Below are positions 16,082-60,402 of a stretch of 64,000 bases of DNA, piece after piece. Made by a program: the position numbers and the translations under genes. The stretch comes from a phage. Numbering within the stretch: the stretch's first letter is position 1; the number at the start of each line of letters is the position of its first letter. Below the pieces are notes generated by a model, which was not told the origin of the DNA, made no database searches, and saw only the letters and a program-made list of their open reading frames with translations. The stretch lies in the NCBI GenBank assembly GCA_012490745.1, contig GCA_012490745.1_3925.1, one strand, 5' to 3'.

Positions 16082-17497
16082 ATGAGCGAGTTATTTAAAC
16101 ATGCGCACCTTCATGCAGGTCGAACTGAAAATGGTGCTGTAAACCATACTTCATCAATGTCTGCTCTTGTAGATTTTTACAAAGCTGCTGGTTCAAGCCG
16201 TAGCAATGTAGAAATCTTACCAGACTTGTTCTACAAAGCTTTGCGTGAGGATGTTGATGTTGCAGTTCGTATTTTACTGCATATGCGAGATGTACGAGAA
16301 GGTATGGGTGAGCGTAAAGCCTTCAGAACTGTTTTGCTTCAAGCGATTGAAGATAAAGTTTTAGAACCTACACAGGTTCTTCGCATTATGGATAAGATTG
16401 CAGAACTTGGTCGTTTTGATGACTTCAAAATCTTCGTAGGTACTCGTTTCGAGACAGATGCCTTCAAACATTTAGAAGCAGCATTACTAGACCATGCAAC
16501 AGCAGGTTTAGCAGCTAAGTGGTTGCCACGAGTAAAACCACGCCACAAACAGTTTGTAAAACGTTTCTGCAAGTTTGCCAACTTGAGTGAGAAAGAGTAC
16601 CGCACACTGTTGTCTGCACTATCTGATACAGTTGAGCAAAAAATCTCTGCTAATGAGTTTGGTAAGATTGATTACAGCAAGATTCCTTCACTTGCTGCTG
16701 CACGTTACCAAAAACTCTTTAACCGTAAAGATGGAGAGCGCTACAAAGCTTACATCGAGTCCTTATCAAAGGGTGAGACTAAGATTAATGCTGGTGCTGT
16801 TTACCCATACGATGTGATTAAATCTGTTAAGTATGGTAATGCAGATGTTGCTAATGAGCAGTGGAAAGCACTACCAAACTGGATGGCAGAGGGTGAAAAC
16901 ATTCTATGTATGTCTGATGTTTCAAGTTCAATGTCTTGGGTGAATTTTGGTTCAATTACTGCTCTTGATATTGGTGTTTCACTTGCATTGTATGTAGCAG
17001 AACGTAATACAGGTTGCTTTAAGAATGAGTTGATGGTTTATTCAACAAACCCTCACTTCATTGAACTGAGTGGTGATTTACGAAACCGTCATCGTCAGGT
17101 AATGCGTCATGTTGAATACGGTTCAACTAACTTACAAGCAGCTTTTGACCGCATTCTTGAGACAGGTAAGAGAAACAACTTGACTCAGAAAGATATGCCA
17201 AGTAAGCTTATCATCTTCTCTGATATGGAGTTCAATCAGGTTGACGGTGCAAATGGTCGTACAAACTTTGAAGCAATTCGTAGTAAGTACAAAAAAGCTG
17301 GATACGAAATGCCACAACTGGTATTCTGGTACTTAGCAAACCGTAGTGGTACTTGCGAAGTGTCTGTTAAGGATAACGGTGTAGCAATGGTATCAGGGTT
17401 CTCTCCAGCCACTTTAAAAGCTCTGCTTGGTGGTGAGAAGTTTGACCCAACCAGCGTAATGCTCAAAGCAGTAATGATTGACCGTTACATCTGGTAA
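16082..17497 (+). CDS. putative vWA/MIDAS-like domain protein (471 aa)
   Basis: Possible MIDAS-like D-x-S-x-S (MSDVSSSMS) followed by hydrophobic beta-strand-like segments and IIFSDMEF. Confidence 0.45.
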   Translation: MSELFKHAHLHAGRTENGAVNHTSSMSALVDFYKAAGSSRSNVEILPDLFYKALREDVDVAVRILLHMRDVREGMGERKAFRTVLLQAIEDKVLEPTQVLRIMDKIAELGRFDDFKIFVGTRFETDAFKHLEAALLDHATAGLAAKWLPRVKPRHKQFVKRFCKFANLSEKEYRTLLSALSDTVEQKISANEFGKIDYSKIPSLAAARYQKLFNRKDGERYKAYIESLSKGETKINAGAVYPYDVIKSVKYGNADVANEQWKALPNWMAEGENILCMSDVSSSMSWVNFGSITALDIGVSLALYVAERNTGCFKNELMVYSTNPHFIELSGDLRNRHRQVMRHVEYGSTNLQAAFDRILETGKRNNLTQKDMPSKLIIFSDMEFNQVDGANGRTNFEAIRSKYKKAGYEMPQLVFWYLANRSGTCEVSVKDNGVAMVSGFSPATLKALLGGEKFDPTSVMLKAVMIDRYIW

Positions 17498-17662: not shown

Positions 17663-17739
17663 CTCTGTTTAGCTCAGCTTGGTAGAGCGTTCCGTTTGGG
17701 GCGGTAAGGCCGGAGGTTCAAGTCCTCCAACAGAGACCA
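17663..17739 (+). tRNA. tRNA-Pro (anticodon TGG)
   Basis: Acceptor ctctgtt/aacagag, T-arm ggagg-ttcaagt-cctcc, anticodon loop tttgggg, CCA encoded. Confidence 0.6.
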
Positions 17740-17746
17740 AATTAAT

Positions 17747-17824
17747 GTTCCAGTAGACAAAATGGTAAAGTCACCACTCTTTCAAAGTGGATATCTGAGG
17801 GTTCAAATCCCTTCTGGAACGCCA
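17747..17824 (+). tRNA. tRNA-Glu (TTC)
   Basis: Acceptor gttccag/ctggaac, anticodon arm ccact-ctttcaa-agtgg, T-loop ttcaaat, discriminator G. Confidence 0.7.
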
Positions 17825-17915
17825 GTTTTGACAGAAGACCAATTACAGCAAACTTAATCTTATTCATCTGAAGGTAAATCGGACAAAGAAGAGATTTGGT
17901 CTGGTCATTAAGAAT

Positions 17916-17992
17916 TGCGGGTATAGAGAAAGGGCGTCTCACATGTCTCATTAGCATGGTATCGGCAGGTTCGACTCCTGCACCCGCCTCCA
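17916..17992 (+). tRNA. tRNA-Met (CAT); possibly initiator
   Basis: Anticodon arm catgt-ctcatta-gcatg, T-arm gcagg-ttcgact-cctgc, 1:72 mismatch. Confidence 0.55.
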
Positions 17993-18069
17993 ATTTTGCA
18001 GAAGACCGTATTCAGCAACAAAATACTTTTTGCGGATAAAAGAAAAAACACGGTCTGGCAATGTATTAA

Positions 18070-18146
18070 GGTTAGGAAGCACATAAGGTATGTGCGGTCG
18101 CCTGTTAAGCGAATGGCACAGGGTTCGAATCCCTGACTAACCGCCA
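18070..18146 (+). tRNA. tRNA-Asn (GTT)
   Basis: Anticodon loop ctgttaa, T-arm caggg-ttcgaat-ccctg, CCA encoded. Confidence 0.65.
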
Positions 18147-18155
18147 AATTTAAAT

Positions 18156-18243
18156 GTGTCGTTATCCCGTAGATGGTAGCGGTGGGGACTGTAAATCCCT
18201 TGTCATTGAGACTCGGTAGGTTCGACTCCTACACGGCACACCA
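18156..18243 (+). tRNA. tRNA-Tyr (GTA), class II
   Basis: Anticodon arm gggga-ctgtaaa-tccct, long variable arm ttgtcattgagactcg, T-arm gtagg-ttcgact-cctac. Confidence 0.7.
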
Positions 18244-18249
18244 AATAAA

Positions 18250-18327
18250 GGTTATGTAGTTTAATCTGGTTAAAATACTCCCCTGTCACGGGAGATGATG
18301 AGGGTTCAAATCCCTTCGTAACCGCCA
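18250..18327 (+). tRNA. tRNA-Asp (GTC)
   Basis: Anticodon arm ctccc-ctgtcac-gggag, T-loop ttcaaat, discriminator G. Confidence 0.7.
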
Positions 18328-18643
18328 AATTATAATAAGTATTTCAAAATGATGTTTGAGAGGGCTATTTTAGCCCCTCCCTTAAAGAGTTCTTACGAGT
18401 ATTCTTTAAAGGAGCAGAAGACCAAATTCAGCAAGTACGTATGATATTTTCAAGCCAATTTAATTTTGAAAAAATTTATAAAACTTGGTCTGGCTCAACA
18501 ATTTTACAGAAGACCGTTTACAGCAAAACTTAAACAATCTATTTCTCCGGTAAAGAAAAGGCGAAGGTTCGATTCCTTCACTCGGCAGATGTCGAGTTGG
18601 TGTAATGGTAGCACTTAAGATGATAAACAACGGTCTGGTAATT

Positions 18644-18779
18644 ATCTTTGTAGATAAGTTATTAAGCTTACCTGTGAGTATGCGACCACAAAGGGTGAAA
18701 GGGTAAATTCTAGATTTAAACCCAAAAAGGCACATCGCTACAGACCTTAAGCAAGTCTGGGTAGCTTATCTACAAAGAT
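18644..18779 (+). ncRNA. Candidate structured small RNA: 15-bp perfect inverted repeat (atctttgtagataag / cttatctacaaagat) enclosing 106 nt with internal hairpins
   Basis: Perfect long-range stem plus internal hairpins cagac-cttaagcaa-gtctg and gggt...accc; lies between tRNA genes. Confidence 0.4.
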
Positions 18780-18787
18780 AATTTAAT

Positions 18788-18863
18788 GGAAGTGTAGCAG
18801 AATGGTGATGCGGCAGACTTTTAATCTGACAGGCGATGGGTTCGAATCCCTCCACTTCTACCA
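18788..18863 (+). tRNA. tRNA-Lys (TTT)
   Basis: Acceptor ggaagtg/cacttct, anticodon loop cttttaa, T-loop ttcgaat; paralog of 20023-20098. Confidence 0.6.
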
Positions 18864-18867
18864 AAAT

Positions 18868-18944
18868 GGTTCAGTCGCAGATAAGGTAATGCAAGGGTCT
18901 CATAAGCCCTATGAATGTGGGTTCGATTCCCATCTGAACCTCCA
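18868..18944 (+). tRNA. tRNA with CAT anticodon (elongator Met, or Ile2 if lysidine-modified)
   Basis: Acceptor ggttcag/ctgaacc, anticodon arm agggt-ctcataa-gccct, T-loop ttcgatt. Confidence 0.6.
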
Positions 18945-18945
18945 A

Positions 18946-19021
18946 GCTGGTATAGTTAAGAAGGTTATAACACTCCCCTGATAAGGGAACATCGGTGGTT
19001 CGATTCCACCTACCAGTACCA
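18946..19021 (+). tRNA. tRNA-Ile (GAT)
   Basis: D-arm gtta...taac, anticodon loop ctgataa, T-arm ggtgg-ttcgatt-ccacc. Confidence 0.65.
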
Positions 19022-19029
19022 ATTTCAAT

Positions 19030-19075
19030 AAAGTTGTTGACACTGAGATGTGACTACTTTATAGTAACCTTAGTT
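19030..19075 (+). promoter_or_regulatory. Internal promoter TTGACA-17nt-TATAGT within the tRNA array
   Basis: aaagttgTTGACActgagatgtgactacttTATAGTaacc. Confidence 0.55.
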
Positions 19076-19269
19076 TTCGTTGCGTAGCGTCTATTTTGCA
19101 AATTTAAAATAAATGCAAACGACAATGTTTTTCTGGCAGTAGCTTGATAGGCTAAACACCAGTGAGGTCTTCCAATCCCTCATCAAAGAATTTGGCGTAC
19201 TAGCCCACGGTATGATTAATAAGGTGGGCATCTTTAAGGGCTTTCTAAGAGAGTCTTTAAAGATAATTA

Positions 19270-19351
19270 CGGGGCGTATCTCAGCGGTCTTCTAAACCGC
19301 CGTTAACCGAGTAAGTGGAGTATGCGGGTTCGAGTCCTGCCGCCTCGACCA
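19270..19351 (+). tRNA. atypical tRNA-like gene (candidate Arg-TCT); cloverleaf not resolved
   Basis: Good acceptor cggggcg/cgcctcg and T-arm gcggg-ttcgagt-cctgc; perfect hairpin gcggt-cttctaa-accgc sits where the D-arm should be. Confidence 0.4.
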
Positions 19352-19494
19352 ATTTAGTTAGCAGATTACTTAGACGACCTAAGCGGGTCTTCCTGTAGGG
19401 AGGTGGTCTGTATCTCATGTTTTCCAGAACATGTAAATAATCTGAGAAGGGGCTTTACAGTGTTGAGATAATACGGTAAGCTTCGAATTATAGT

Positions 19495-19577
19495 ATGGGA
19501 CGATGTTAAGACTCTAAGGCATGAGCAACGGCCTCCAAAACCGTTTCAAAGGGGTTCAACTCCTCCGTCCCATGCCA
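19495..19577 (+). tRNA. tRNA-like gene, candidate Trp (CCA), with 7-8 extra nt in the 5' region
   Basis: Perfect acceptor atgggac/gtcccat, anticodon loop ctccaaa, T-loop ttcaact. Confidence 0.45.
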
Positions 19578-19590
19578 AAGTCTTATTAGG

Positions 19591-19680
19591 GGTAGGTAGC
19601 GGCTAATGGCAGCCAAACAGTCTTGAAAACTGTTGCCACTGTAGAGATACGGTGAGGGTTCGACTCCTTTACTTACCGCC
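19591..19680 (+). tRNA. tRNA-Ser (TGA), class II
   Basis: Anticodon arm acagt-cttgaaa-actgt, long variable arm, T-arm gaggg-ttcgact-ccttt, discriminator G. Confidence 0.65.
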
Positions 19681-19937
19681 TAATAAGATTTTTAAAGCCA
19701 AGCTTCATTCGGATGTTGCTTTGGTATACCGCGTGTATTGTCGTACACACAGATAAAGCACCTAGTAGGTGTCACGGAGAAGAGATAATATCAAGCTCTC
19801 CAAAGGTTCTAGTCACCGGATTAAACAAGACTATGCAAAGGCCTTTTTAGGTCTTTTTAGAGGGCTTCTAAGGTTATTACAGCTTGTTGTGGAACCTTGT
19901 TGCTTAGGTTCTTAGAAGTTCTCTAAAAAGATTTAAT

Positions 19938-20015
19938 GGGAGATTGACGGTAATTGGTAAACCTACCATCCTTAGAAGTTGGTGTTTGAGGGTTCGAATC
20001 CCTTGTCTCCTACCA
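19938..20015 (+). tRNA. tRNA with TAG anticodon (Leu) but class I length
   Basis: Anticodon arm ccatc-cttagaa-gttgg, Leu-like D-loop aattggtaaac, discriminator A, T-arm gaggg-ttcgaat-ccctt. Confidence 0.5.
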
Positions 20016-20022
20016 AATTAAT

Positions 20023-20098
20023 GCAGGTGTAGCAAAATGGTTATGCGGCTGACTCTTAATCAGTAAGACGATGGGTTCAATTCCCTCCACCTGTACCA
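20023..20098 (+). tRNA. tRNA-Lys (CTT)
   Basis: Anticodon arm gctga-ctcttaa-tcagt, T-loop ttcaatt, acceptor gcaggtg/cacctgt. Confidence 0.6.
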
Positions 20099-20104
20099 AA
20101 CAAT

Positions 20105-20180
20105 GGGGATGTAGTTTACATGGTTAAAACATAAGTTTTGCAAACTTAAGTACAGGGTTCAATTCCCTGCTTCTCCACCA
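20105..20180 (+). tRNA. tRNA-Ala (TGC)
   Basis: D-arm gttt...aaac, anticodon arm taagt-tttgcaa-actta, T-arm caggg-ttcaatt-ccctg. Confidence 0.65.
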
Positions 20181-20186
20181 ATTAGT

Positions 20187-20261
20187 GCATCCATAGTTTA
20201 AACGGGAAAATTACAGTCTTCCAAACTGAGGTTGAGGGTTCGATTCCCTCTGGATGCTCCA
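20187..20261 (+). tRNA. tRNA-Gly (TCC)
   Basis: Perfect acceptor gcatcca/tggatgc, anticodon loop cttccaa, T-arm gaggg-ttcgatt-ccctc. Confidence 0.65.
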
Positions 20262-20266
20262 AACAA

Positions 20267-20344
20267 TGCTGCTTTCGTATAATTGGCTATTACACATCCC
20301 TTGTAAGGATGGAAATGCAGGTTCGAGTCCTGTGAGCAGCACCA
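20267..20344 (+). tRNA. tRNA-Thr (TGT)
   Basis: Anticodon arm catcc-cttgtaa-ggatg, T-loop ttcgagt. Confidence 0.65.
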
Positions 20345-20440
20345 ATTCAGAGGTCAAGTGAAAGACCGCTTTGAGTCAACTGAAGACCGTAACAAATTCC
20401 ACGGAGTTGAGTTAGCGGCACAACTCCAGACCTCTTTCAT

Positions 20441-20515
20441 ACTCGCTTAGTTTATATGGTAAAACATCACCCTTACAAGATGAAGAAAAAGGTTCAAGTC
20501 CTTTAGTGAGTACCA
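20441..20515 (+). tRNA. tRNA-Val (TAC)
   Basis: D-arm gttt-atatggta-aaac, anticodon loop cttacaa, T-arm aaagg-ttcaagt-ccttt. Confidence 0.6.
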
Positions 20516-20516
20516 T

Positions 20517-20594
20517 GTTCCAGTATCCCAATTGGCAGAGGATGCAAGCTCAAACCTTGTACTAGTGACGGTTCGAATCCGTCTTGGAACACCA
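20517..20594 (+). tRNA. tRNA with CAA anticodon (Leu) but short variable arm
   Basis: Anticodon arm (t)gcaag-ctcaaac-cttgt(a), Leu-like D-loop aattggcagag, discriminator A, T-arm gacgg-ttcgaat-ccgtc. Confidence 0.5.
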
Positions 20595-20599
20595 ATTTT

Positions 20600-20675
20600 G
20601 CAGGATTAGTTCAAATGGATAGAGCAACAGTCTACGAAGCTGTTAATAGGGGTTCGAATCCCTTATCCTGCGCCA
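20600..20675 (+). tRNA. tRNA-Arg (ACG)
   Basis: Perfect acceptor gcaggat/atcctgc, anticodon arm acagt-ctacgaa-gctgt, T-loop ttcgaat. Confidence 0.65.
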
Positions 20676-20694
20676 ATTTAAAGAGGCTATTTAG

Positions 20695-21252
20695 ATGAGA
20701 TATTTGAAGTATGCTTCATGGATTTTCTTAGCTTTGTTAGAGCCATTTGCAGCAATCTTAGCAGTTATCTTAGCACCTTTTGTAGTTCCATTCTACAGTG
20801 AGAAGAAAGGACACTTACCTTTCGGGTTCAGATGGATGGAGACATATGACAACCCAATTGATGGTGATGAAGGTCACGTTAAAAGATGGGCTAATATTAG
20901 ATGGATTGGTAAACTAGGTGTCTACATGCAAAGAGTCGGATGGCTCTGGAGAAACAAAGCTTATAACTTCTCTTACCATGTATTAGGAAGAGATGTAAGA
21001 GATGTTACTAAGTGGAAAGGTAATATCAACGTAAGTTCTGACCCCGAAGATAATCAGACAGGTTATCTCCTAATGTGGAACAGTAATGCTTGGGGATTAT
21101 TCGCTTTTATCCCATCAATTAAAATCTTTGGTAAACAGTTTTACTGGAGAATTTATATTGGATGGAAACTTAAAAGTGTTGTCCCAGAAGAAAGAGCATT
21201 CTCAAGGGAAAGAGTTATGTTGGCATTCTTTATTCATCCACTGAGAAAGTAA
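20695..21252 (+). CDS. hypothetical Trp-rich membrane protein (185 aa) embedded in the tRNA array
   Basis: ORF with SD aaGAGG; N-terminal TM helix (WIFLALLEPFAAILAVILAPFVVPF). Confidence 0.55.
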   Translation: MRYLKYASWIFLALLEPFAAILAVILAPFVVPFYSEKKGHLPFGFRWMETYDNPIDGDEGHVKRWANIRWIGKLGVYMQRVGWLWRNKAYNFSYHVLGRDVRDVTKWKGNINVSSDPEDNQTGYLLMWNSNAWGLFAFIPSIKIFGKQFYWRIYIGWKLKSVVPEERAFSRERVMLAFFIHPLRK

Positions 21253-21260
21253 AGATTTAA

Positions 21261-21336
21261 AGGGGATTAGTTTACAAGGTTAAAACCTCGGTCTTTGAAA
21301 TCGAAGAAGTTGGTTCAATTCCAACATCCCCCGCCA
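21261..21336 (+). tRNA. tRNA-Gln (TTG)
   Basis: Anticodon arm tcggt-ctttgaa-atcga, T-arm gttgg-ttcaatt-ccaac, A1:C72 mismatch. Confidence 0.55.
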
Positions 21337-21338
21337 AT

Positions 21339-21416
21339 GCTCCATTACTCCAATTGGCAGAGAGGCCAGACTTAAAATCTGTGTTATGTATCGGTTCGAA
21401 TCCGATATGGAGTACC
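21339..21416 (+). tRNA. tRNA with TAA anticodon (Leu) but short variable arm
   Basis: Paralog of 20517-20594 (D-loop aattggcagag), anticodon loop cttaaaa, discriminator A. Confidence 0.5.
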
Positions 21417-21422
21417 AAATTT

Positions 21423-21497
21423 AGCGGTATAGCATAACTGGCAATGCAACAGTCTCTGAAGCTGTCCTATTAAGGTTCAAATCCTTATGCCGCTGCC
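21423..21497 (+). tRNA. tRNA-Gln (CTG)
   Basis: D-arm gcat...atgc, anticodon arm acagt-ctctgaa-gctgt, T-arm taagg-ttcaaat-cctta. Confidence 0.55.
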
Positions 21498-21529
21498 ACT
21501 TCTAAGGATTCTTACGAGAGTCCTTAAAT

Positions 21530-21605
21530 GTGGCCTTATCATAAAAGGTAATGACCCATGCTGTGAACATGGTCTATACGGGTTCAAATCCCGTAGGTCA
21601 CCCCA
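21530..21605 (+). tRNA. tRNA-His (GTG)
   Basis: Anticodon arm ccatg-ctgtgaa-catgg, discriminator C73, T-arm acggg-ttcaaat-cccgt. Confidence 0.65.
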
Positions 21606-21610
21606 ATTTA

Positions 21611-21688
21611 TAGTCCAAGTAGCTTATATGGTTAAAGCGCGTGTCTGAAAAACATGAGAAGAGGGTTCAAATCCCACTGGACTACCAA
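21611..21688 (+). tRNA. tRNA-Phe (GAA)
   Basis: Perfect acceptor tagtcca/tggacta, anticodon loop ctgaaaa, T-loop ttcaaat. Confidence 0.65.
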
Positions 21689-21703
21689 TTTCAAAGGTGC
21701 TTA

Positions 21704-22438
21704 ATGAAAGAGATGACAGAACAAGGTAAGGAGATTTTTAATCTCTTAAAAACTGGTAAAGGGTTTTCTAACCCCCTTATTACTGGTGCAGCAGTTCTCG
21801 GTGGAACCGTAGCTGCCTCTACATCACTTGTAAGCTCTATTAGCTCTGTATCAGACCCTACAGTAAAGGATAAGCTTGTTGCTGCTGGACTTACAACAGT
21901 TCTGCTTAACAGCTTTACCACGAGTCTGACAAGCACTACATCAACTACCAAAACACTAACAGATTACGGTCAAAAGTCCATTGATGAGTTTTCATCACGT
22001 ATGCAGGTAGCAAAAGGTTATTCTAATGTTATGGGTGCAGCAGGTGAACAAGTTGGCTGTACACCATTTAGTGGTATTATGGGTGTTGCTACAGAGTATG
22101 GTCAAAAAGCTATTGATACGATTAACAGTACACTAGATAGTGTTAATGGTGTGTTAAGTGACTTACAAGATGCTATTGATAAGGGTCTTGATACTGTTTC
22201 TGATTTAGCTAATCAGGCTGTTAGCAAGATTAATGAAGGTATCTCAAAGATTACAGCTTATGCAGATGAAGTTGTGCAGATGATTGAAGAAGAAGCTGCC
22301 CTTATTGCAGAGTACCTTAAAACGAATATCAATGGGTTCTTAGCAGGTATCTTACCAGACTGGTTTGATGATGCTTGTAAAACTGGTGTGATTGACACTA
22401 TTGCAACACCAGAAATGAAGAACGCATTACAGAAATAA
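21704..22438 (+). CDS. hypothetical Ser/Thr-rich protein (244 aa)
   Basis: The ORF-track start 21641 lies inside tRNA-Phe; ATG 21704 has SD aaaGGtg 5 nt upstream. Confidence 0.5.
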   Translation: MKEMTEQGKEIFNLLKTGKGFSNPLITGAAVLGGTVAASTSLVSSISSVSDPTVKDKLVAAGLTTVLLNSFTTSLTSTTSTTKTLTDYGQKSIDEFSSRMQVAKGYSNVMGAAGEQVGCTPFSGIMGVATEYGQKAIDTINSTLDSVNGVLSDLQDAIDKGLDTVSDLANQAVSKINEGISKITAYADEVVQMIEEEAALIAEYLKTNINGFLAGILPDWFDDACKTGVIDTIATPEMKNALQK

Positions 22439-22439
22439 T

Positions 22440-22532
22440 GGAAGATTAACCCTAAAAGGTAAGGGAGCAGTTTGCTAAACTGCCAGTAGCTGAGAAATCG
22501 GTGTACCAGTTCAAGTCTGGTATCTTCCTCCA
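22440..22532 (+). tRNA. tRNA-Ser (GCT), class II
   Basis: Perfect acceptor ggaagat/atcttcc, anticodon arm gcagt-ttgctaa-actgc, long variable arm, T-arm accag-ttcaagt-ctggt. Confidence 0.7.
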
Positions 22533-22536
22533 ATTT

Positions 22537-22612
22537 GAATCCGTGACAGAAATGGCTATGTGCCTGTCTGCAAAACAGGTTTATAAGGGTTCGAGTCCCT
22601 TCGGATTCTCCA
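22537..22612 (+). tRNA. tRNA-Cys (GCA)
   Basis: Perfect acceptor gaatccg/cggattc, anticodon arm cctgt-ctgcaaa-acagg, discriminator U73. Confidence 0.7.
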
Positions 22613-59658: not shown

Positions 59659-60402
59659 ATGAGTAATATTATCGCATTTACTGGAAAGGCACGCTCTGGA
59701 AAAGACACCTCATGTTCTATTGTGAAGAACATCTTAGAGGATGAGTACGGCTACAATGTTGCTGTAATGGCCTTTGCAGACAACCTTAAAATGTCTGCAT
59801 CAAAGATATTTGACCTGACTTGGAATGACCTGTATGGTGAAACTAAAGAGACTCCACAGGTATTTGACTTATCATATCCTGAACTGATGTTTAAAGTTAC
59901 GGAAGCTATGGAGTTCACCTTCAGAGATGAACGTTACCATATGGACTTCAAGCTTATGTCAGAGTTAACCGGACGATTAATCATGGAGCTTAAGAAGGTT
60001 GCTAAACCTACCATACTAACACGTCTGGGATTTAGTAAAAAGTATAAATTCTCATCAAGACAAATTCAACAAATTTGGGGTACTGAAGTTGTCCGTAAGG
60101 TAATGGGCGACAAGTTCTGGTCTAAAGACCTTGAAAAAAGAATGGTTAGATTCCATGAAATGTGCTCACTTAGAAATCAATATGGTTTTGTCTTAATCAG
60201 TGATTTAAGATTTGACTCTGAAGCTGAATGGCTGAGTAGATTTGCACACCAAACTATTGAAGTAAAAAGAGACAATGTGGACAAAGTTTCATCACATGTT
60301 TCAGAAAATGGGATTTCTACAAAATATGAGCGTGACATTATTCATAATAATGGTACTCTTGCAGACCTTGAGAACAAGCTAAGAGCCATCATTAAAGTTT
60401 AA
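59659..60402 (+). CDS. deoxynucleoside monophosphate kinase-like P-loop protein (247 aa)
   Basis: N-terminal P-loop FTGKARSGKDT resembles the T4 gene 1 dNMP kinase GxxRSGKDT. Confidence 0.65.
   Translation: MSNIIAFTGKARSGKDTSCSIVKNILEDEYGYNVAVMAFADNLKMSASKIFDLTWNDLYGETKETPQVFDLSYPELMFKVTEAMEFTFRDERYHMDFKLMSELTGRLIMELKKVAKPTILTRLGFSKKYKFSSRQIQQIWGTEVVRKVMGDKFWSKDLEKRMVRFHEMCSLRNQYGFVLISDLRFDSEAEWLSRFAHQTIEVKRDNVDKVSSHVSENGISTKYERDIIHNNGTLADLENKLRAIIKV

Follow-up and report, generated by a model that had tools for sequence, protein, structure and literature searches.

The 64,000-nucleotide stretch of phage DNA analysed here (GenBank assembly GCA_012490745.1, contig GCA_012490745.1_3925.1; hereafter the window) carries a tRNA array in which three genes, with the anticodons UAG, CAA and UAA, encode leucine tRNAs (tRNALeu) of type I, that is, with a short variable loop in the place of the long class II arm. 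We consider it most probable that these are functional, leucine-accepting tRNAs. Type I tRNALeu is already known from animal mitochondria and from the Streptomyces coelicolor tRNALeu(CAA); what is apparently unreported is the frequency of such tRNAs in phage tRNA arrays and a core signature of their own. The array is 96-98% identical to Felixounavirus genomes, with 351 phage records matching it, and on that identity we assign the window to Felixounavirus (Felix O1-like myoviruses of E. coli, Salmonella and Shigella).

Structure of the three tRNALeu genes

The three genes lie on the plus strand and were found both by ARAGORN and by Rfam (RF00005, gathering score 29 bits): tRNALeu(UAG) at 19938-20015 (78 nucleotides (nt), made up of a 75-nt core and CCA), tRNALeu(CAA) at 20517-20594 (78 nt), and tRNALeu(UAA) at 21339-21417 (79 nt, with the discriminator A at 21414 and CCA at 21415-21417). 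With the anticodon stem taken as 5 base pairs (bp), the variable region is UGUUU (5 nt) in the first, ACUAGU (6 nt) in the second and GUUAUGU (7 nt) in the third; pairing of C27 with G would shorten the last to 6 nt and leave a bulge. All three are shorter than a class II variable arm, which has at least 10 nt and a stem, and all three have the helix-free variable region of about 4-7 nt that is typical of type I. The Rfam matches span 73, 75 and 76 nt (40.0, 43.6 and 47.5 bits, in the same order), and therefore leave no space for a hidden arm.

In the ARAGORN cloverleaves, each gene has a 7-bp acceptor stem, a 5-bp T stem, the T loop UUCGAAU, an encoded CCA, and a 7-nt anticodon loop with U33 (CUUAGAA in tRNALeu(UAG), CUCAAAC in tRNALeu(CAA) and CUUAAAA in tRNALeu(UAA)). 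The D arm of tRNALeu(CAA) and tRNALeu(UAA) reads U/C-CC, CAAUUGGCAGA, GGA/GAG, giving the 3-bp stem and 11-nt loop found in class II tRNALeu, with A14, A15, G18G19, A20a, G21 and A22 all present; the D loop of tRNALeu(UAG) is (G)UAAUUGGUAAA. As a separate observation, tRNALeu(UAG) carries A37, the E. coli tRNALeu(UAG) having G37, the m1G site.

The tRNATyr and the two tRNASer genes of the same array, all class II and on the plus strand, provided an internal comparison for arm length: tRNATyr(GUA) at 18156..18243 has a variable arm of 15 nt, tRNASer(UGA) at 19591..19680 one of 20 nt, and tRNASer(GCU) at 22440..22532 one of 21 nt, with the Rfam matches of the two tRNASer spanning 88 and 90 nt. 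An earlier, sequence-only reading of this DNA had described the three Leu anticodons (as TAG, CAA and TAA), variable regions of 5-7 nt with no class II arm, Leu-type D loops with A73, and long arms on the Ser and Tyr tRNAs of the array, all of which agrees with ARAGORN and, for anticodons and arm lengths, with Rfam. No other anticodon and no long arm came out of the covariance-model folds, whether with Rfam or with the type II Leu model described below. The coordinates it gave for the first two genes stand as well, and its end point of 21416 for the third is one base short, the gene being 79 nt and not 78 nt long. A prediction artefact, be it a misplaced fold, a wrong anticodon, or a hidden intron or arm, was also considered and is refuted, its remaining probability being negligible: both programs give the same boundaries and anticodons, cores of 75-76 nt cannot fit an arm of at least 11 nt, and the GenBank records of relatives label the same genes tRNA-Leu at 77-79 nt.

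The short fold is under selection. When 60 distinct short tRNALeu sequences, including the three from the window, were aligned and scored against a cloverleaf that has a D stem of 3 bp and a short variable loop, 97.1% of the stem cells were paired, compared to 57.9% in shuffles and 38-47% in slid controls. Nineteen of the 20 pairs vary on both sides, with 456 compensatory cells, and this degree of pairing and compensation excludes both a pseudogene and an artefact of folding. Pseudogenes would be expected to have broken stems, lost conserved bases and no constraint; here the stems are kept, and the genes are conserved in Felix O1, in Erwinia phage Hena2 and in T5-like phages.

Leucine identity

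The determinants read by the E. coli leucyl-tRNA synthetase (LeuRS) are A73, U8:A14, A15-U48, G18G19, U55C56 and U54:A58, and the long arm is not needed (PMC9976931, PMC6614811); tRNALeu variants lacking the arm are still active with this enzyme, as reviewed in PMC9976931. All three window genes have A73 followed by CCA. U8, A14, A15 and U48 can be read directly from tRNALeu(CAA) and tRNALeu(UAA), and likewise from tRNALeu(UAG) after allowing for a one-base insertion in the D arm. All three also have G18G19 within an AAUUGG D loop and the T loop UUCGAAU, from which we infer pairing of G18G19 with U55C56, and of U54 with A58. We found no rival identity set in the three genes: position 3:70 is G-C in tRNALeu(UAG) and U-A in both tRNALeu(CAA) and tRNALeu(UAA), so that the G3:U70 determinant of alanine is missing, and there is no long arm for seryl-tRNA synthetase (SerRS). 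The sequence-only reading went too far in calling this an unusual Leu identity set, as the standard identity elements for E. coli LeuRS are kept and only the scaffold is unusual.

The same elements are shared more widely. Among 101 distinct type I tRNALeu, mostly from viral contigs, and 142 distinct type II tRNALeu, U8, A14, A15, A22, U48 and A73 are all well kept, each in 91% or more of either set. In the bacterial reference, A15-U48 together with A73 is found in 29 of 41 Leu tRNAs vs 29 of 571 others.

To compare the genes to long-armed tRNALeu specifically, a covariance model (R2) was built from 30 bacterial type II Leu tRNAs only. Among the 26 tRNA-like elements of the array, R2 ranks tRNALeu(UAA) 1st (51.6 bits) and tRNALeu(CAA) 2nd (46.5 bits), and scores the Tyr and Ser tRNAs at 21-28 bits. 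In the R2 alignment the deletion falls exactly on the arm helix, and the flanking bases are kept. An earlier model (R1), built from short Leu tRNAs, gave 45-65 bits on all tRNAs and was replaced by R2 as not isotype-specific. Efforts to assign isotypes by whole-sequence nearest neighbours among bacterial tRNAs failed on the control tRNAs of the array too, the stem sequences swamping the signal.

Arm-less tRNALeu in viral and bacterial tRNA arrays

For a wider census, IMG/VR was scanned for two neighbouring T arms using the seeds GGTTCGAATCC and GGTTCAAATCC, which were chosen without reference to Leu. Of the 233 loci retrieved from these uncultured viral contigs, the 229 that bear tRNAs were analysed with ARAGORN; variable regions of 5-7 nt were classed as short and those of 11 nt or more (10 or more for Tyr) as long. 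Short variable regions were found in 85 (43%) of 198 Leu tRNAs, the other 113 being long, and none of the 198 had a variable region of 8-10 nt. Only one of 191 Ser tRNAs and one of 86 Tyr tRNAs were short (190 and 85 long, respectively). The loci bearing short Leu tRNAs range from 33 to 69% G+C. By Leu type, 34 loci have only short genes, 66 only long genes, and 25 are mixed. There are no duplicate anticodons in the 34 loci with type I only, and a type I and a type II tRNALeu have an anticodon in common in only 2 of the 25 mixed loci.

A bacterial control with the same seed and one genome per species yielded 50 Leu tRNAs, 41 long and 9 short. The 41 long ones comprise every Leu tRNA in the 26 ordinary loci that bear one (116 ordinary loci in total), and since all 41 are long-armed, the short arms in the window are not due to chance. 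The 9 short ones are confined to four loci, one of them with 3 tRNAs (L243) and the others being three dense arrays (11-31 tRNAs per 8 kb) on contigs of Acidobacteriota metagenome-assembled genomes. L149 and L201 have 30-31 tRNAs in 8 kb and L133 has 11, and all of their Leu tRNAs are arm-less; these three resemble arrays of phage type that lie within bacterial genomes or were binned with them.

A core signature at positions 9 and 13

The short tRNALeu differ from the long ones in the tRNA core. Position 9 is A in 68 of 101 short vs 5 of 142 long Leu tRNAs (Fisher p 1.1e-28), and position 13 is C in 73 of 101 vs 3 of 142 (Fisher p 1.6e-34); among type II Leu tRNAs, 123 of 142 have G9 together with R13. 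A 2025 crystal structure of free tRNALeu describes the type II core triples as G9-G12-C23 and R13-G21-A22, compared to A9-U12-A23 and C13-G22-m7G46 in the class I tRNAPhe (PMC12360207). Given these published triples, the enrichment of A9/C13 indicates that most arm-less Leu tRNAs join a Leu-type D loop to class I-type bases at two positions that contact the variable region. In the window, tRNALeu(CAA) and tRNALeu(UAA) are A9/C13 and depart from the type II triples (G9 with R13), and tRNALeu(UAG) is G9/G13.

Relatives and lineages

The trait is not limited to this phage: short Leu genes also occur in Felix O1, in Hena2 and in T5-like phages, so that the trait is found Ounavirinae-wide and beyond, and in the sampled viral arrays at the frequency given above. 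Felix O1 has the same three short Leu genes. Its tRNALeu(UAA) is identical to that of the window, its tRNALeu(CAA) differs by one variable-loop base, and its tRNALeu(UAG) differs at four anticodon-stem pairs, three of them by compensatory changes and the fourth by a U.U in the window that is C-G in Felix O1. tRNALeu(CAA) is 95-100% identical across 248 phage records. A BLAST search with it against 5,426 complete E. coli genomes retrieved no match, so that at BLAST sensitivity this gene is not host-derived. Erwinia phage Hena2, of another Ounavirinae genus, has three short Leu tRNAs of 77-78 nt with the anticodons CAA, AAG and UAA, and the mycobacteriophage PascalRango has one, a tRNALeu(UAA) of 75 nt. 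We would also like to note that GU169904.1, labelled as Staphylococcus phage SA1, has at 60278-60355 a stretch 100% identical to the tRNALeu(UAG) gene of the window; since a true Staphylococcus phage should not carry such a stretch, the record probably contains Felix O1-like sequence.

The tRNALeu(UAG) of the window is 83.8% identical over its full length to the tRNALeu(UAG) of many T5-like phages, with no arm-sized insertion or deletion. TrudiRoth (Epseptimavirus) has two Leu tRNAs, each of 77 nt, and its tRNALeu(UAG) adjoins tRNA-Ala. Phage T5 itself resembles the window in having a tRNALeu(UAG) next to tRNA-Ala in a phage tRNA cluster and in its hosts; unlike that of the window, its gene is of type II, and it is TrudiRoth's type I gene, not T5's, that is the close relative of the window's. 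Thus, within the Demerecviridae, the tRNALeu(UAG) beside tRNA-Ala is long-armed with 85 nt in T5 (L003, 11625-11709) and arm-less with 77 nt in TrudiRoth (L244, 6997-7073). The two sequences are not close to one another, which suggests that the gene at this site was replaced, rather than its arm simply deleted in place.

In 49 of 63 cases the nearest neighbour of a short Leu tRNA is another short one, vs a null of 40 ± 7%; either common ancestry or convergence could give such clustering. The nearest neighbours of tRNALeu(UAG) are long-armed tRNALeu(UAG). Together with its G9/G13, as opposed to the A9/C13 of tRNALeu(CAA) and tRNALeu(UAA), this argues for at least two lineages of short Leu tRNAs, with the tRNALeu(UAG) of the window, as judged from these comparisons, of a different lineage from the other two.

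Charging and codon use

None of the nine window open reading frames (ORFs) scanned, which include the eight largest, encodes an aminoacyl-tRNA synthetase; they match structural or replication proteins or have domains of unknown function. We therefore propose that the host LeuRS would leucylate the three type I tRNAs during infection, an enzyme of the E. coli type reading A73 and the D/T-loop core (U8:A14, A15-U48, G18G19, A20a) with no need for the arm. Leu tRNAs could lose the arm since bacterial LeuRS works without it. SerRS and bacterial tyrosyl-tRNA synthetase bind the long variable arm, which would be why the Ser and Tyr tRNAs of the array have kept theirs. For SerRS, this binding is also described in PMC7609411. 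The proposed charging by host LeuRS draws on the identity elements kept in the genes and on published work on the E. coli enzyme.

In decoding, tRNALeu(UAA) and tRNALeu(CAA) would read UUA and UUG, and tRNALeu(UAG) would read CUA and probably other CUN codons, so that the phage tRNAs would supplement UUR and CUN decoding. Across 40 window ORFs, Leu codon use is 28.7% UUA, 26.0% CUU, 14.6% UUG, 13.9% CUG and 11.2% CUA, and the phage has 39% G+C. This pattern is the reverse of that of E. coli, in which the codons read by the three anticodons are rare. Codon use thus fits the three anticodons, and the feature would be ordinary in its function.

Evidence against and alternative explanations

Several observations weigh against the interpretation of the genes as functional, leucine-accepting type I tRNAs, or of the trait as widespread. 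The D stem of tRNALeu(UAG) is irregular: in the canonical register it consists of A10-U25, a C11.C24 mismatch and G12-C23, the mismatch being U.C in Felix O1, so that position 11 is variable between both. The arm is one base longer than in the T5-like homologue, and a stem slid by two bases (GGU/ACC) suits both the window and the Felix O1 alleles. Due to this irregular D arm, tRNALeu(UAG) ranks only 6th of the 26 elements with R2 (39.5 bits). The combination of A15-U48 and A73 fails as a Leu-specific marker within this A+T-rich array, tRNA-Thr also having A15, U48 and A73. Single-sequence minimum free energy folding did not recover the cloverleaves of the three genes (z-scores of -0.3 to -1.6); this is usual for A+U-rich unmodified tRNAs, and the result was given no weight. 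Both census seeds need adjacent T arms 60-90 nt apart and so may mildly favour short tRNAs, a bias that is limited, with about 10 tRNAs contributed per locus and Ser and Tyr unaffected. Lastly, Fan et al. 2019 (PMC6614811) report that leucylation of the S. coelicolor type I tRNALeu(CAA) failed with E. coli LeuRS, and that the leucine-specific domain of this enzyme prefers tRNAs whose variable loop is large. The S. coelicolor tRNA has C48 (loop ACAGC) and therefore lacks the A15-U48 pair on which E. coli LeuRS depends; position 48 is U in the phage tRNAs.

Could the genes instead be decaying or non-functional tRNA-like remnants, or have a non-translational role as processing signals or regulatory RNAs? 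Their Rfam scores of 40-47.5 bits, lower than those of most other tRNAs in the array, would accord with this, as would the mismatched D stem of tRNALeu(UAG) and the presence of a truly aberrant tRNA-like element (19270-19348) in the same array. Nevertheless, all stems are intact and CCA is encoded, the genes are conserved, with compensatory changes, in several genera and hundreds of genomes, the identity elements are kept, anticodons do not overlap within arrays, and the codons read are enriched in the phage, so that we regard such an origin or role as highly improbable. Charging of the tRNAs with some other amino acid, and thus a recoding of UUR or CUA, is likewise very hard to credit. The class I shape and the failure of E. 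coli LeuRS on one natural type I tRNALeu would permit it, but the genes offer no alternative identity set at 3:70 or in an arm for SerRS, their Leu-type D arm, A73 and A15-U48 are all conserved, and under published identity rules the anticodons UAG, CAA and UAA are read by no anticodon-dependent synthetase except as Leu (PMC9976931).

A further alternative concerns why the arm was lost, and under it the genes would still be Leu acceptors. Arm loss could be an adaptation, either an escape from host toxins or defence enzymes that read the class II arm or an avoidance of mis-serylation by SerRS, such that leucine decoding would go on with the host class II tRNAs disabled. The toxin MenT3 picks tRNASer by its long variable loop, and tRNAAla becomes a substrate once this loop is grafted onto it (PMC11162799); AbiEii probably also selects class II tRNAs by their long arm. 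An adaptation would also account for the abundance of type I Leu in viral arrays and its absence from ordinary bacterial loci, for the persistence of a distinct A9/C13 family in contigs across the whole range of G+C noted above, and for the mutual clustering of the short sequences. However, we know of no toxin in enterobacteria that targets tRNALeu through its arm, and nothing in the window ties the tRNAs to a defence or counter-defence gene. Moreover, the arm is present in 57% of viral Leu tRNAs, both types occur together in 25 arrays, and a tolerated deletion combined with pressure for compact phage genomes predicts the same pattern. We thus hold an adaptive cause to be possible and, on balance, unlikely.

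Other features of the tRNA array

The array spans 17663..22612 and contains 25 tRNA genes, including the three for Leu, all on the plus strand by ARAGORN and Rfam, with a few small ORFs interspersed. Directly upstream lies an ORF of 471 aa (16082-17497, plus strand) with DUF2828 and DUF7788 domains, and within the array, between tRNA-Arg and tRNA-Gln, a DUF7338 protein of 185 aa is encoded (20695-21252, plus strand). The aberrant element at 19270-19348 (plus strand) scores 31.7 bits with Rfam, and ARAGORN does not call it even when its thresholds are relaxed. Its acceptor, anticodon and T arms are good, with UCU (Arg, AGA) as the anticodon; its D arm measures only about 4 nt, and the variable region contains about 20 inserted nt. 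Records of relatives list it as "tRNA-OTHER" or "putative tRNA pseudogene". Variable loops of 4 nt occur in several class I tRNAs of the array (Ile, Ala, Gly, Val, Arg, Gln-UUG and Phe), and the first tRNA-Met (17916-17992) has no encoded CCA in the register used by ARAGORN. The tRNASer(GCU) at 22440-22532 has U73, as does the homologous tRNASer(GCU) of TrudiRoth (L244, 312-405); the usual bacterial Ser discriminator is G73.

The census loci also contained an opposite oddity. Fourteen tRNAs of 88-96 nt with the Ile anticodon UAU have a long variable arm of 21-26 nt, in viral loci L012, L036, L051, L065, L074, L090, L102, L111, L305, L325 and L346 and in bacterial arrays L149, L168 and L201. 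A73 is present in 13 of the 14, and the arm loop has the recurring motif CCAGATTAGCG or CAGATAA. No such tRNA is found in the window.

Comparison with known tRNALeu and significance

The closest described counterpart in a bacterium is the type I tRNALeu(CAA) of S. coelicolor. Like the phage tRNAs, it belongs to bacterial translation and lacks the class II arm, its variable loop being 5 nt long. The species also has type II tRNALeu and just one LeuRS, which was shown by experiment to leucylate the type I tRNA (PMC6614811). Its loop, A44-C45-A46-G47-C48, is one base from ACAGU, the commonest loop among the phage short Leu tRNAs, the comparison being one of loops. Unlike the phage genes, it is an actinomycete chromosomal gene, its own LeuRS ignores A73, E. 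coli LeuRS does not charge it, and it has C48 where 96 of the 101 sampled type I Leu tRNAs have U48. Animal mitochondrial tRNALeu(UUR/CUN) are also of type I; they lack the long arm, and A73 and A14 serve as their identity elements (PMC9976931). They are served by a dedicated mitochondrial LeuRS, and their D/T interactions are often weak or non-canonical, whereas the phage tRNAs keep the canonical G18G19 and UUCGAAU T loop and would rely on a bacterial cytoplasmic LeuRS. With class II bacterial tRNALeu, such as the E. coli isoacceptors, the phage tRNAs have A14, A15-U48, A73 and the anticodon set in common, and tRNALeu(CAA) and tRNALeu(UAA) also the 3-bp D stem and the D loop of 11 nt (N-AAUUGG-YAGA); the phage tRNAs differ from them in lacking the helical variable arm of 11-18 nt. 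Engineered arm-less or minimal versions of E. coli tRNALeu are charged by E. coli LeuRS if A73 and the D/T contacts are intact (PMC9976931, summarising Larkin et al. 2002 and Asahara et al. 1993/1998). Those are laboratory constructs; the phage genes, which retain the same features, would be their natural counterparts.

We found no description of phage type I tRNALeu in the open-access literature searched; subscription literature lay outside the search, and an earlier description may exist there. Reviews of tRNA identity and of non-canonical tRNAs (PMC9976931, PMC7609411) do not mention it, and the phrase "type I tRNALeu" occurs in the searched open-access literature only in PMC6614811, which makes no mention of phages. 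Textbooks and the reviews consulted treat the long arm as a hallmark of bacterial tRNALeu, with mitochondria and one Streptomyces tRNA as the exceptions discussed, and one paper states that E. coli LeuRS charges type II tRNALeu only. Classic phages of E. coli and Salmonella, both Felix O1-like and T5-like, nevertheless carry two or three conserved arm-less Leu tRNAs. Given these genes, and a share of about 40% of the Leu tRNAs in viral arrays, we infer that bacterial LeuRS must accept such substrates routinely. A common generalisation on bacterial tRNALeu is thus contradicted in a way that is directly testable, with the phage genes as natural test substrates for LeuRS recognition. For annotation, the genes are real tRNA-Leu and not mispredictions, and a Leu anticodon combined with a 5-nt variable loop and A9/C13 provides a simple sequence signature, which in the bacterial sample pointed to large tRNA arrays, the 3-tRNA locus L243 excepted.

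The testable idea is also raised that phage tRNAs evade host enzymes that recognise the class II shape. Tentatively, and we think it improbable, arm-less tRNALeu could form a phage-associated class that is widespread, has a remodelled A9/C13 core and persists as a decoder invisible to arm-reading host factors. Such factors may be SerRS, abortive-infection or toxin nucleotidyltransferases of the MenT/AbiE type, or other nucleases directed at class II tRNAs. If this were true, natural type I tRNALeu would be charged in vivo by ordinary bacterial LeuRS, that of E. coli included, against the published statement that the E. coli enzyme charges type II only, and the Streptomyces type I tRNALeu might itself belong to, or derive from, the phage family.

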